From contig JAWLHY010000002.1 in the NCBI GenBank assembly GCA_041690135.1, positions 1,072,342-1,136,341 on the forward strand: a DNA stretch of 64,000 nt, written 5' to 3'. The stretch is from Armatimonadota bacterium. GTDB lineage: Bacteria; Armatimonadota; SYMT01. Positions 16,220 to 22,670 of this stretch are shown here, piece by piece (positions within the stretch are counted from its first letter, which is position 1; each line of letters opens with the position of its first letter). The notes below the pieces were generated by a model. The model ran no database searches. It was given only the letters and a program-made list of their open reading frames with translations, and was not told the DNA's origin. Made by a program: the position numbers and the translations under genes.

Positions 16220-17014
16220 ATGAGATCCAGAACCCGAGGATTCACCCTCATCGAACTGCTCGTGGTGATAGCGATCATCGCCATCCTCGCCGCCATCCTT
16301 TTTCCCGTGTTCGCCCAGGCCCGCGAGGCCGCGCGCCGTTCGAGCTGCGTCTCCAATCTCAAGCAGATCGGCGCCGCCGCAATCATGTATGCGACCGACA
16401 ACGACGGATTCGTGCTGCGCCTCGCGAGTTCCGTCTCGCGGATCGACCAGAACGTGCTCGGCGAGCCGGTGCCGCCCCGGGGCTATGCGGAGGCCTACTA
16501 CTGGCAGTCCCTCTGGCTGCCGTACACCAAGAACAGCCAGATTTTCTTCTGCCCCAGCGGTTACACCGCGTTCCGGAACGCGCCGCGCTACATGAACACC
16601 TCCGGCGGACAGCCGATCCGCGAGATCTGGGGCCATTACGGCATCAACTACGAGGGGCTGTGCAAGAGCCGGGCGCCGCATAACCGCATCGGCCTGGATA
16701 CGGTGGCCGAACCGGCCTCCACCTTCATGGCGATGGATAGCTGGAGCGTTTCGCCGGCGGTGGATGGCGCGGACAACCCCCTCCGGTTCTTCGGGAGCGG
16801 GGCCGTTGGCAGCGGTAACGACGTGGGTATCGGGTTCAACCTCCCACCCGGAGACCCGCGCCGGGGCGACCGGCACCAGCAGAACGTGAACATCGTGTAC
16901 TGCGACGGCCACGTGAAGAGCATGAAGGGCATGGCGCTCCTGCCGCTGGTACCTTCCGGAGGCTACAGCGCCTTCACCAACTACCGGATGGACGCCGGAG
17001 CCTGGATTCCCTGA
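16220..17014 (+). CDS. Prepilin-type DUF1559 protein with H-X9-DG motif
   Basis: [33 protein letters not shown]. Confidence 0.92.
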
Positions 17015-17952
17015 ACTGCGGTCTCCAGAAGCTTTACCAGGTGTTCCAATCCATCGATCAGCCGGGGGGAGGGCCGGCAGTACAGGCCCTCCTCCAGGAC
17101 ATGGATGCGTCCGTGCCGTACCGCGGAGATCCGCTCCCAGCCCGGCCGGCGCAAGACCACTCCGGGCCTTACCTTGTGGGTTGCCACCCCGGTCCAGGCG
17201 AGGAAGATGAACTCCGGATCGGCCGCCGCCACCGCTTCCGGCGTGGGGCGGGCCGCCGCCACATCGACGTGTGCGGTTATGCTGCGGCAGCCGGCCAGTT
17301 CCGAGAGGGGCGTGAGCCAGTTCCGTTTACCGGGACAGAAGAGCGGTCGCGGCCACCACTCCCAGTAAATGCGCGGACGGGTGGGACGGGCCTCCGCCGC
17401 ACGCCGCACGCGCTGGATGCGCTCCTGCAGACCGGCGATCACCGCTTCCGCGCGGTCCGCTGTGCCCGTCAGCCGGCCCAGGATGCGGAGGTCCATCCAG
17501 ATGTCGCCCAGCGAGTGCGGCGCGAAAACGACGTAAGGCAGCAGGTGCTCCTCCAGGGCCGCCAGGTTCTTCTCCATCCCGGGAACCGTGAGCGAGGCGA
17601 CCACCAGGTCCGGCTTCAACGCCGCCACGCGCGCCATGTCGATCGCTAGGTCCGGTCCCACGCGCGGCAGCCCCGCAGTTTCCGGAGGCCAGTCCGACCA
17701 GTTGTCAATCCCCACCAGCCGGTCCGTCAGCCCGAGCGCGTGCACCAGCTCCGTGTTGCTGGGGCAGAGGGAAACGATCCGCTCCGGAATCCCCGGCCGG
17801 AGGCGAGCCGTGTGACCGCCGGACACGTGGATGGCCCCACGCTCTCCCTTGCGGAAGCCGTAGGGGCAGTTCCGGCAACCGTTCTCGCAGCAGTAGCCCC
17901 GGTTCAGGAGGAACTCTCGGGAGAGAGCTCCGTGTTCGTCAAAGGTGCGCAT
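16981..17952 (-). CDS. BtuF-like helical-backbone binding protein with N-terminal Cys-rich (DUF5522-like) module
   Basis: [15 protein letters not shown], then [11 protein letters not shown]...LKPDLV...RPSPRLIDG; no signal peptide. Confidence 0.82.
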
Positions 17953-18146
17953 TCGAGGTCAGGTGTTCGGGAAGAGTCCACAGATGACGCAGATTGGAAA
18001 AATGAATGGCCGACGTCAGGCCGGTGGGCAATCGATCCGCGAATTAGGCTAATGGGGCGAATGGAAAGCGGTGTTCGGGTACCCCTGTGGGGCGAAAATT
18101 TGTGGGCAGTGGGCATTCGGGCATTCGGGCAATCAGACTCAAGGGG

Positions 18147-18266
18147 CATTGCGAGGAGCGAGAGACCAGAAGCAACTTCTCCGAATCGGATGAGCTTTGA
18201 GTCGGAGCCGTCAACTTCCTGAATCGGAACCTGTAAGCGACGCGGCAAGCCCCCTGGTCAGGGAAG
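18147..18266 (+). repeat. Dispersed ~120-bp element, copy A
   Basis: Colinear with 33465-33583; first 14 bp and last 34 bp identical. Confidence 0.85.
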
Positions 18267-18335
18267 TAGTTCTTACTCGGTACTCTTGATCTTGTTCGTA
18301 ATCCTGGTCCTAATCGACCCCAGCCCCTTCATCCC

Positions 18336-19139
18336 TCATTCTTCATCTTTCATCCTTCTCAATGCCACCAGCGGCACCCCCTCCGTGGGGTGGCGGAGCA
18401 CTTCGACCCGGCACTCGAAGACGGGTTCGAGCACCGCTGGGCGCAGGACCTCTGCCGGAGGGCCGTCGGCATACACGCGGCCTTCGTGCAGGAGCACGAG
18501 ACGGTCGAACCAGAGTGCGGCGAGGTTCATGTCGTGGATCGCGGCGATCACCGTGAGGCCACGCTCCTGGTTGAGGCGCTGCACCAGCCCGAGTAGGCCC
18601 ACCTGGTGATGCAGATCGAGGTGGGCGGTCGCTTCATCCAGGAGTAACAGCTTCGGCTCCTGGGCGAGCGCCATCGCCAGGGCGGCCCGCTGACGCTCCC
18701 CGCCGGAGACCTCGCCTACCAGCCGGTCCGCCAGTTCGGTGACCTGGGCGAGGCCCATGGCCAGGCGGACCGCCGCCCGGTCTTCCTCGCGTTCTCCACG
18801 TAGGGTGGAGAGATACGGCGTGCGTCCCAGCGAGATCCACTCCCGCAGGGTAAAGGCGAACGGGATGGGCAGTGTTTGCGGGACCATCGCGATCTGCCGG
18901 GCGCGTACCCGAGCCACCATCTGATTCAAGTCTTCTCCCTGGAACCGGATTCGTCCCTGAGCCGGATGGAGGGTGCCAGCAAGCAGGCTCAGGAAGGTGC
19001 TCTTGCCGGAACCGTTCCGGCCGAGCAGGGCCACGCGCTCGCCGCGACGGACGGCGAGGTCGATGCCGTCCAGGACCCTCCCCTGACCGTAGGAGAACGC
19101 CAGTTTTTCTACCTGGAGCAAGGGGGAATCGCCTACCAC
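18336..19139 (-). CDS. btuD: ABC transporter ATP-binding subunit (BtuD/FecE type)
   Basis: GRNGSGKS, VSGGERQR, LLLLDEAT, IHD; GTG start overlaps the permease stop. Confidence 0.88.
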   Translation of the reverse strand: MVGDSPLLQVEKLAFSYGQGRVLDGIDLAVRRGERVALLGRNGSGKSTFLSLLAGTLHPAQGRIRFQGEDLNQMVARVRARQIAMVPQTLPIPFAFTLREWISLGRTPYLSTLRGEREEDRAAVRLAMGLAQVTELADRLVGEVSGGERQRAALAMALAQEPKLLLLDEATAHLDLHHQVGLLGLVQRLNQERGLTVIAAIHDMNLAALWFDRLVLLHEGRVYADGPPAEVLRPAVLEPVFECRVEVLRHPTEGVPLVALRRMKDEE

Positions 19140-21272: not shown

Positions 21273-21336
21273 TCTTTCTCACCTCCAACTGCCGAGTAGC
21301 TAACAGGCGGACGGGACGTCCGCGCTCCGGCGACGC

Positions 21337-22188
21337 CTACCGCCCAGAGAAATACCGGTCGTCGTCGGTGCCGTTGACACCGAGGTGGTGCAGGTGGTGC
21401 GCCACGTTGTTGGCGTTGGTGGAGCGTCGGAGGGGCTTCAGCGCCTTCACGTGACCATCCACGAATACGGCGTTCAGGACCTCGTTGTGCCGGAAGTGGG
21501 CGTTGGGGAAGTCGCCGAACCCCAGCGAACTGGACGGCGGCGCGATGGAGAAGGTCTCGTAGAGCCCCGCATTGGCCCCCGTGCGGTACGTGGCCACATC
21601 CGCGAAGGCGATGCAGTCGGCGGGGCGATTGATAGACGCCTCGTGGACGGTGTAGTCGCCGTAGCGCCCAGCCGCCGTATTGCTGGCCAGGTAGATCCAG
21701 TTGTACCCGTAGCCTCCGGTGGCGTTCCCATAGGCGGGTCGGCCGGTGAAGCTGGGGCAGAGCTGAATCTGGTGGTTACGCGTGTAGGGGTAAAGCATCC
21801 CCTGGGTTTTATCCACCACCCCATTAGCGAGGAGCCCGAACCAGTAATGCCCCACGGTGTAAGAGGGGGGCAGCGTGAGGTGCAGCGGATAGCACCCCTC
21901 GTAGTCCTGGGAATACATCTGTAGGGCCGTCCCGAGTTGCCGCAGATTGCTGGCGCACGATGACTGCCGCGCAGCCTCGCGAGCCCGGGCGAACACGGGA
22001 AAGAGGATGGCGGCGAGGATGGCGATGATCGCTATCACCACGAGGAGTTCGATGAGGGTGAAACCCCGGCTTCGCCGATTAGGATGAGGATAATGATTAG
22101 GATCAGGACGGCGGGTTCCGGCCGCCTGAATGCCCGAACGCCCAACGCCCAACTGCCTGAATGCCTGAATGCCTGAACTTCTGAACAC
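21337..22188 (-). CDS. Prepilin-type DUF1559/H-X9-DG protein, first gene under the cobalamin riboswitch
   Basis: RBS AGGAGG + [31 protein letters not shown]; His-rich tail HHLHH. Confidence 0.92.
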
Positions 22189-22433
22189 GGTAACCTCCTG
22201 ATGGATAGAGAGAAGTCCATCGCGGCGCGGATCCGACCTGTGGGGTGCACAGACAACAAACGCCTCTCTTCCGGAGAAGAAAGGCGCCGACGGCGGATAC
22301 GCGCTGGGAGGAGTCCCGGTGGGGCTCGAACGAACGGCCTCGGATTCCGTGTGTTCCGGAGCGGCGGCCTGGCACAGCGACGTACACGTGTCCGTCCGGC
22401 CCCTTTAGTCCGAAGGGGGTTTCGGCCGAAAAA

Positions 22434-22607
22434 CCGTGAATGCAGGTCTCCTGGCTTCCGGATCGTCGCTTTCCGCGCCTTCTCCCGCTGCTTGCGGAAT
22501 GGCGGAGTGCGGATCGCTCCCCGGTTACAGTGGCGGCACCGCGCCGGATTCACACCGGCTTCCCTATTCTCCGCCGCACCCCCGTGGGCGCGGCGGCACA
22601 TTCATGG
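22434..22607 (-). ncRNA. Cobalamin (B12) riboswitch
   Basis: Minus strand AATAGGGAAGCCGGTGTGAATCCGGCGCGGTGCCGCCACTGTAA...GGGAGAAGG...AGCCAGGAGACCTG; closing stem CCATGAATG/CATTCACGG. Confidence 0.95.
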
Positions 22608-22641
22608 CCACGCGAACGATGGAGTTTTCAAGGACGGGCAG

Positions 22642-22670
22642 TTTATAGCACATGAGGCCGGGTTTGCCAA
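22642..22670 (-). promoter_or_regulatory. Sigma70-type promoter of the riboswitch operon
   Basis: TTGGCA-N17-TATAAA with extended -10 TG, about 35 nt upstream of the aptamer. Confidence 0.7.

Follow-up and report, generated by a model that had tools for sequence, protein, structure and literature searches.

In corrinoid uptake of the type described in Escherichia coli, a cobalamin riboswitch represses the outer component, the TonB-dependent receptor BtuB, which works with the importer BtuF-BtuCD (binding protein, permease of the FecCD type, ABC ATPase). We analysed a 64,000-nt stretch of an Armatimonadota genome (GCA_041690135.1, contig JAWLHY010000002.1, positions 1,072,342 to 1,136,341; the window, throughout) whose minus strand holds an operon of the same layout. 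In contrast to the E. coli-type arrangement, its first gene encodes a prepilin-type protein, and not a receptor with a Plug domain and a beta-barrel. The E. coli-type form, in which the riboswitch leads BtuB and ExbB, ExbD or TonB sometimes join it, occurs in relatives from the same phylum. Because no B12-type receptor was found in the genome assembly, TonB-energised transport cannot be assumed here. The reading we favour, for which the chances of being right and of being wrong are about equal, is that the pilin is a B12-repressed envelope component of corrinoid acquisition that does the job of BtuB in relatives.

Two further sets of described systems are close to this locus. In the Btu loci of Bacteroides, riboswitched accessory proteins that belong to no transporter family capture the vitamin outside the inner membrane (PMC6143338, PMC10404256), and the likeness extends to one relative whose operon joins a BtuG1-like beta-propeller with a pilin of the clade defined below. 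BtuG and BtuH, however, are lipoproteins that act on BtuB and have a propeller or some other fold (PMC6143338, PMC10404256), whereas the window protein carries a prepilin (class III) signal, is predicted to fold as a pilin and mostly occurs without a B12-type receptor. It resembles ComP, ComGC, GspG/EpsG and PilA4 in its N-terminal G/FTLIE methylation motif and in a long alpha-1 helix followed by a head of beta-sheet. Competence pili are a precedent for ligand uptake by a pilus. Unlike competence pili and the pseudopilins of type II secretion systems, the window protein has a larger head (about 190 residues) with an H-X9-DG motif, its presumed ligand is a vitamin and not DNA or protein, and its gene is placed singly behind a riboswitch, at a distance from assembly genes. 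It is a member, by both models, of the DUF1559 (PF07596, 'SBP_bac_10')/H-X9-DG (TIGR04294) family, from the rest of which its clade differs by a conserved link to a ligand-sensing RNA and by residues of its own. The DUF1559 family is described as of unknown function and has 68 paralogues, with two essential genes, in Planctopirus limnophila (PMC10632474).

The elements of the operon, in order of transcription, are as follows.

22642 to 22670, minus strand: promoter-like site, TTGGCA (22670-22665), 17 nt, TATAAA (22647-22642), read directly from the sequence
22424 to 22618, minus strand: cobalamin riboswitch aptamer (RF00174), 118.9 bits, E 3.1e-29
22259 to 22288, minus strand: terminator-like hairpin of 13 pairs followed by a T-rich tail, from a hairpin scan
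21337 to 22188, minus strand: prepilin-type DUF1559/H-X9-DG protein of 283 amino acids, from motifs, ribosome-binding site, model and tree
20292 to 21272, minus strand: BtuF-like substrate-binding lipoprotein with lipobox LALAGC (PF01497 Peripla_BP_2, 137 bits)
19133 to 20311, minus strand: BtuC-like FecCD permease (PF01032, 275.3 bits)
18336 to 19325, minus strand: BtuD-like ABC ATPase (PF00005, 112.8 bits)
16981 to 17952, minus strand: second BtuF-like (Peripla_BP_2) protein, without signal peptide and with a Cys-rich DUF5522 at its N-terminus, from Pfam and sequence

A preliminary description, made from the sequence alone, had placed a cobalamin riboswitch at 22434-22607; the covariance model RF00174 matches there with slightly wider limits, covers model positions 1-189 of 189 and exceeds its gathering score of 31.5 bits. 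The promoter, the prepilin, btuF, btuC, btuD and the second BtuF-like gene were all found on the minus strand where that description had put them, and the distance from the prepilin stop to the btuF start is the 64 nt that it gave. A consensus scan does not list the promoter-like site, whose -10 hexamer has A at position 6, where the scan accepts only T. The hairpin at 22288-22259, an element that the description had not mentioned, lies on the same strand within the 236 nt between the aptamer end and the GTG start of the pilin gene, and is the probable expression platform of the riboswitch. No TonB-dependent receptor occurs among the window open reading frames (ORFs) scanned with Pfam (sets of 12 and 36 ORFs), as had been claimed, nor do these scans place a Plug domain and 22-strand barrel (PF07715, PF00593) under the riboswitch. 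Aptamer score, Pfam domains and gene order together bear out a riboswitch that heads a prepilin-btuFCD operon without btuB.

The importer genes do not reach the NCBIfam equivalog cut-offs for BtuF (NF002894, 111.9 against 234 bits) and BtuC (NF007081, 267.5 against 461 bits), and the ATPase scores 253.8 bits with the corrinoid ABC ATPase model, under its cut-off of 537. Consequently, the importer's specificity for B12 rests on the riboswitch and synteny. The true start of btuD is probably later than the first start in its ORF, the ABC domain beginning at residue 85. The DUF5522-BtuF gene begins 384 nt after btuD, so its co-transcription with the operon is uncertain, and its product is probably cytoplasmic since it has no signal peptide. 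Its position after btuD is shared with one relative (G007; G, L and C numbers are our handles for genomes, loci and contigs), and in another (G005) DUF5522-BtuF (L151) and BtuF genes lie directly behind a second cobalamin riboswitch of their own.

We searched 40 relatives plus the window's own genome (G000) for the pilin head domain and obtained matches at E<=1e-10 in 39 of the 41 genomes. The best match per relative ranged from E 5.9e-55 to 1.0e-11, and the best paralogue within the window's genome reached 1.1e-21. Best-hit loci were obtained for 29 relatives (best E in these 5.4e-17 or better), and a Cobalamin or AdoCbl-II aptamer lies upstream on the same strand in 26 of them (19/20 and 7/9), the loci without one being L023, L026 and L028. 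In the window and in all but one of the 26 loci, the aptamer ends 68-366 nt ahead of the mature-pilin codon; the exception is L031, where a gene intervenes between aptamer and pilin. A terminator-like hairpin separates the two in 16 of 26 stretches tested, the window included. The pilin and btuF are adjacent here, as described before, but their coupling is looser than had been supposed: btuF follows the pilin orthologue in 11 of the 29 loci, two of which are cut by contig ends, and in 14 of 54 pilin-led units of the wider survey presented below. The remaining next genes are convergent or unrelated (mechanosensitive channel, amidohydrolase, FtsY, aconitase, catalase-peroxidase), and in G014 the order is pilin, btuF, cobU, cobT, cobS. 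Because btuF follows in so few loci, the conserved unit is riboswitch plus pilin, and the transporter is a frequent, not an obligatory, companion. Synteny thus extends well beyond this genome, and riboswitch-pilin is the commonest cobalamin-riboswitch arrangement in the phylum as sampled.

This linkage singles out one pilin among many. Of 115 ORFs in the window's genome that carry a prepilin motif, 98 also have one like H-x9-DG, and PF07596 gave at least 110 matches (among the 150 of 183 candidates that were scored). It has two cobalamin riboswitch matches, and one of the 98 H-x9-DG paralogues is riboswitch-linked. We built a tree of 148 pilin rows (IQ-TREE quick mode, with Shimodaira-Hasegawa-like approximate likelihood ratio test (SH-aLRT) support and no bootstrap) from 34 riboswitch-linked pilins, 97 paralogues of the window's genome (one having been dropped), three riboswitch-less best hits and 14 controls; control loci L070, L071, L074 and L076, which lack the motif pattern applied, and L069 were left out. 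All 34 riboswitch-linked pilins fall within one clade of 40 rows (SH-aLRT 96). Six rows of the clade were labelled riboswitch-less, and one of these, L062 from a Chthoniobacteraceae metagenome-assembled genome (MAG), was later shown to be preceded by a riboswitch at a distance of about 2 kb, the gene for a secreted protein lying in the interval.

The control set consisted of 20 of 80 general DUF1559 loci from other genomes of many phyla. A search with the clade alignment returned general DUF1559 paralogues and not orthologues, because its patterns were drawn from the shared N-terminal helix. One of the 20 controls (L086, from a Kuenenia MAG) has an aptamer within 1.5 kb, or two of 20 when L062 is counted, and both belong to the clade. 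Conserved residues that distinguish the clade from 108 other paralogues are G89, G118, Y121, Y125, F154, A155 and F191. Residues 1-25 of the mature protein are 82-100% conserved, alike in the clade and in other paralogues; such conservation is more in keeping with a filament core and machinery in common than with a helix that does no more than anchor the protein in the membrane.

The genome has 98 H-x9-DG prepilin ORFs, and on the opposite strand two more lie within 1-5 kb of the operon, so that a member of so large a set (about 100 paralogues) could have come to lie beside a B12 transport operon by chance. However, the pairing recurs in 26 of 29 best-hit loci and 31 of 41 genomes, as well as in 54 of the 102 units of the wider survey; it does not extend beyond one clade, and it is present also where no transporter gene adjoins. 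We therefore give chance next to no probability, as adjacency of pilin and riboswitch by accident is contradicted by its conservation in relatives.

We took a census of cobalamin riboswitches and the genes that they lead. In the first sample, 57 riboswitch matches in 41 genomes were listed and cross-referenced with the pilin and TonB-receptor matches, and 20 further riboswitch regions were annotated. A riboswitch leads a pilin in 31 of the 41 genomes (as second gene in G013 and third in G040) and a receptor with Plug and barrel in seven (G010, G021, G023, G024, G025, G026 and G038); none has both arrangements, and three (G008, G017 and G028) were assigned to neither class. Some of the receptor-type loci have PduO, ExbB, ExbD or TonB alongside. 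For the four of seven riboswitch-led receptors tested, the TonB-B12 model was the best in every case, at 242-310 bits, below its equivalog cut-off. Two receptor-type genomes, G024 and G026, are the only ones without a pilin-head match at E<=1e-10.

A wider sample of 151 genomes was drawn, from which 100 listed riboswitch regions in 78 further genomes gave 102 units (L208, at a contig end, was too short at 332 nt, and one region contains four riboswitches). Classified by local profiles and Pfam, these units are led by a pilin (54/102), a TonB receptor (16/102), btuFCD (9/102), cob genes (4/102), recurrent secreted families (3/102), NrdD (2/102) or a homocysteine methyltransferase (1/102), and 13 of 102 were not classified by local queries. 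In most of those 13, Pfam put a name to the lead or a neighbouring ORF: class I ribonucleotide reductase in two that were scanned (two others are similar in size), and elsewhere MetE, CbiMQ, a ThiC-family protein and two beta-propellers; the lead or nearby ORFs of L169 and of three of the four G091 units (L174a-d) remained unnamed. By genome, 49 of the 78 have the pilin only, 13 the receptor only, three both and 13 neither, and the 'neither' units of G053 and G041 contain a clade pilin further down. These genome-level 'only' counts are soft because riboswitch detection in the larger samples was incomplete. Five listed matches with too little downstream sequence were left out (G065:C587, G154:C322, G148:C19, G143:C349 and the second on G134:C268).

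The resulting complementary pattern of pilin and BtuB-like receptor is strong but not absolute, since detection was incomplete, five matches were left out and the genomes are kin and not independent. Strict mutual exclusion held in the first 41 genomes and was dropped when three of the 78 further genomes proved to have both. The earlier proposal that the pilin stands where btuB would be accordingly holds in part: relatives without a pilin orthologue have riboswitch-BtuB instead, but the replacement is not complete.

Cobalamin riboswitches are clustered or in tandem at L174 (G091:C50:3900-15500), L191 (G069:C83) and L267 (G193:C29). G091 has four riboswitches within 8 kb, one leading cobUTS and two upstream of one TonB receptor gene, and in G069 and G193 two tandem riboswitches precede a single gene.

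The presence of MetE, class I ribonucleotide reductase and NrdD behind other cobalamin riboswitches of the phylum raises the question of whether the pilin, like metE or nrdAB, is a B12-independent substitute for a B12-dependent function. No B12-dependent counterpart of a pilin is known, and the genes found together with the pilin in operons serve transport and salvage and do not encode metabolic isozymes. We consider this explanation very improbable.

The B12 economy of the window's genome was assessed on an assembly of 9.1 Mb in 25 contigs that is 97% complete, so that absences here mean not found in that assembly. MetH and a PduO-type adenosyltransferase are present. Neither MetE nor CobU, CobT or CobS was found by tblastn with queries from within the phylum; CbiC and methylmalonyl-CoA mutase were not found, and there are only three TP_methylase genes. 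Because MetH is present while MetE, CbiC and CobUST were not found, the organism looks dependent on imported cobalamin. The genome has a single PF00593 match, at C3:610486, which belongs to a receptor of the TOL_0244 family (701.7 bits against a cut-off of 645), scores only 89.5 bits with the TonB-B12 model and neighbours YfiR-like and sensor-kinase genes. A B12-type TonB receptor is thus lacking elsewhere in the genome as well as in the window, its sole TonB receptor being of another family.

The genome also encodes a prepilin peptidase (Peptidase_A24, 34.2 bits) and four secretin matches, one of them (C2:1062027-1062518) about 10 kb before the window. PilC/T2SSF and PilB/T2SSE (with MshEN) genes are found in the window at 6-3091 on the minus strand. 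This candidate assembly machinery lies 18-30 kb from the operon. As judged from these genes, the genome has what pilin processing and assembly need. A search for sequencing runs that contain this genome listed no RNA run, only two soil DNA runs in which its share is small.

The prepilin gene starts with GTG, 5 nt after AGGAGG. Its product has a G/FTLIE-type N-terminal methylation motif with Gly-1 and Glu+5, and matches PF07963 N_methyl at 41.1 bits and TIGR02532 at 34.3 bits. The match to PF07596 also scores 41.1 bits (gathering score 23.3) and covers only profile positions 2-46 of 268, and the H-X9-DG model TIGR04294 gives 20.1 bits against a cut-off of 19. H193-x9-D203-G204-H205 is kept across the pilin alignment. 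The leader would be 41 residues long if the GTG start is used (22066-22188), which is unusually long, and it contains repeated GIQA/GVGR words; in most orthologues the start codon gives a leader of 3-19 residues.

An AlphaFold model from a 27-row alignment (predicted local distance difference test 89.4, predicted template modelling score 0.87) has a helix at residues 4-54 followed by a mainly beta head, that is, the long alpha-1 helix on a beta-sheet head of type IV pilin-like proteins. Foldseek returned nothing at E<=0.001 when this model was compared to the Protein Data Bank. An exhaustive structural search gave weak matches only, with pilins and pseudopilins ranked at the top (PilA4 6xxd, Z 5.4; ComP 5hz7, Z 4.8; EpsG 4lw9, Z 4.6) and a root-mean-square deviation of 3.0 over 117 residues for the best of them. 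In a profile search of solved chains, pilin matches were confined to the N-terminal helix. The predicted complex of pilin head and BtuF scored 0.01 against a mark of 0.32, which weighs neither way. Going by the model, the protein is pilin-type with a large head and has no fold tie to a known B12 binder.

In the favoured reading of the pilin as an outer component of corrinoid acquisition, four things are inferred: control by termination, the processing and assembly of the protein, its binding of corrinoid, and a hand-off to BtuF. When corrinoid is plentiful, the aptamer would bind it, the hairpin would form and transcription would end ahead of the pilin gene; when it is scarce, pilin-btuF-btuC-btuD would be transcribed. 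The prepilin would insert in the inner membrane by its N-terminal helix and be cleaved after Gly-1 by the prepilin peptidase. Shared machinery of the PilB/PilC/secretin type would then build it, as one of many alternative subunits, into a short pseudopilus. The globular domain, with G89, G118, Y121, Y125, F154, A155 and F191, may capture corrinoid at or across the outer envelope, and the corrinoid would pass on to the BtuF lipoprotein and BtuCD.

Alternatively, no filament is formed, and the cleaved protein stays anchored in the inner membrane as a periplasmic corrinoid binder or chaperone that feeds BtuF-BtuCD, while corrinoids cross the outer layer via a porin, a secretin or an unrecognised channel. 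This arrangement shares the regulatory and co-occurrence evidence with the pseudopilus, and it suits riboswitch-pilin units without adjoining assembly genes, the presence of more than 90 paralogues per genome, which resembles expansions of substrate-binding proteins, and the three genomes with both a riboswitched receptor and a pilin, where the role could be accessory and periplasmic. However, an N-terminal helix that is near-invariant in all paralogues exceeds the needs of an anchor. A riboswitch-led receptor where a riboswitch-led pilin was not found (7/41 and 13/78 genomes) points to the outer step, as does the lack of any pilin-domain match at E<=1e-10 in the receptor-type genomes G024 and G026. 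We regard the anchored binder as unlikely, though more probable than any other rival considered here, and prefer a pseudopilus subunit because of the pattern complementary to BtuB and the near-invariant helix.

A third possibility is that the pilin has no role in transport, and that B12 scarcity induces a surface fibre for contact with B12 producers or particles or for other starvation behaviour. Riboswitch regulation is all that can be directly inferred, the next two ORFs match no B12 query in 21 of 54 pilin-led units of the wider survey, and several loci of the first set continue with a convergent gene or an unrelated one. The neighbours under the same switch, when present, are nevertheless btuF, btuCD, cobUTS or candidate B12 binders, and adhesion hardly explains the complementarity with BtuB-like receptors. 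We consider such a fibre improbable.

Several observations weigh against the pilin as a replacement for BtuB. G083, G128 and G118 carry riboswitch-pilin together with riboswitch-receptor, so the replacement is not strict. Within flanks that reached 1.5 kb or more upstream, no riboswitch was found for two in-clade paralogues of the window's genome or for L050, L053 and L055, the clade copies of G017, G028 and G036 (L053 being that of G036, with a 1.5-kb flank). With the window's PilB and PilC as queries, none of the 102 further riboswitch units proved to have a pilus-assembly gene closer than 3.5 kb. No known B12 binder appears among the pilin's sequence, Foldseek or structural-search matches, although the folds could still be alike. 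The outer membrane itself is deduced from receptors and secretins, related genomes are non-independent observations, and the larger samples were scored on 15-46 candidates per genome, with 64 weaker riboswitch matches standing outside the set.

The genes that follow riboswitch-linked pilins are btuF, cobU/T/S and recurrent secreted proteins. Several lineages, and a MAG of the Verrucomicrobiota, have members of two secreted families, X and Y, beside a riboswitch-linked pilin (L058, L148, L149, L152, L153, L156 and many survey units); these families have no significant Pfam match, only marginal PEP-CTERM or dockerin matches below the gathering score. In the window's genome, a second, weak cobalamin riboswitch match lies outside the window at C3:3687-3798 on the plus strand (40.1 bits; locus L165, 3687-4467). 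It is followed by the gene for a 164-residue secreted protein without a Pfam or NCBIfam match, which could be a B12-regulated binder.

Cobalamin riboswitches also lead YncE-type beta-propellers in L184 (G053) and L186 (G041), and, in another phylum, in L269, L273 and L280. The order in G053 (L184) is riboswitch, beta-propeller, clade pilin. This propeller resembles BtuG1 (8blw_B, E 7.5e-9), and its best match is the archaeal S-layer propeller 1l0q. The 8BLW entry is the BtuB1G1 complex (PMC10404256), and BtuG is a surface B12 binder (PMC6143338). For the phylum to which the Kuenenia MAG belongs, we examined the best riboswitch unit of each of the 20 top-ranked genomes; G186 had too little downstream sequence, which left 19 units. 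Their lead genes encode a TonB receptor (5/19), BtuF or BtuC (3/19), a YncE/lactonase-like beta-propeller (3/19), a clade-like pilin (2/19), a relative of secreted family Y (2/19) or CbiMQ (1/19), and three of 19 were not named.

Other features in and near this part of the window are the following.

13507 to 14994, strand not given: CobQ gene, from the Pfam scan
15196 to 15891, plus strand: DUF1559 prepilin gene, convergent to the operon
16220 to 17014, plus strand: DUF1559 prepilin gene, convergent to the operon
23318 to 24319, minus strand: secreted protein without known family
24235 to 25488, minus strand: secreted protein without known family, paralogous to the preceding one
36792 to 37730, plus strand: AbiEii-type nucleotidyltransferase toxin gene

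The two additional prepilin genes are placed between the DUF5522-BtuF gene and cobQ, and look inserted because the matching stretch in G007 has no pilins. Both lie outside the riboswitch clade, the product of 15196-15891 falling in its sister group in the tree. The two secreted proteins, 27% identical to each other (E 3.9e-13), are encoded just upstream of the operon promoter.

Outside the window, the same genome has a paralogue of the riboswitch clade without a riboswitch (L162, C2:756771-757529, minus strand). It is flanked by a DUF4198-like gene (27.4 bits, below the cut-off) and a PepSY_TM gene, neighbours that usually flank a TonB-dependent metal or siderophore receptor. L162 may be a second case of a pilin in a receptor's place. 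A thiamine counterpart was not seen: both thiamine pyrophosphate riboswitches of the window's genome lead thiC or thiG/E/O-like genes, and no pilin.

The preliminary description had gone on to suggest that the DUF1559 family at large consists of substrate-capturing pilins. With a single riboswitch-linked member among 98 paralogues and thi genes behind both thiamine pyrophosphate riboswitches, our data do not support this extension. It is doubtful, though conceivable, that a single retractile pseudopilus works in place of TonB-dependent transport and takes up DUF1559/H-X9-DG pilins as exchangeable subunits, each of which captures a ligand of its own. If so, the B12 clade would be the first such subunit with an assigned ligand, in a setting where Armatimonadota and bacteria of the Planctomycetota-Verrucomicrobiota-Chlamydiota group have few TonB-dependent receptors.

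DUF1559/H-X9-DG proteins form one of the largest paralogous families of Planctomycetota, Verrucomicrobiota and Armatimonadota, with 98 copies in this genome. In the literature that we searched on DUF1559 we found nothing on function, and nothing that ties pilins or DUF1559 to B12; subscription journals were mostly outside this coverage, so that absence is unproven. A ligand-sensing RNA conserved ahead of one clade therefore names a candidate ligand and makes the family testable. The locus also marks a gap in B12 ecology, namely a genome that is apparently dependent on cobalamin import yet has no BtuB-like receptor. The prepilin gene would be the first pilin-type gene under riboswitch control, and, if the pilin does carry out the outer step, it would represent a route of vitamin uptake unlike the known TonB-dependent, energy-coupling factor or BtuM routes.

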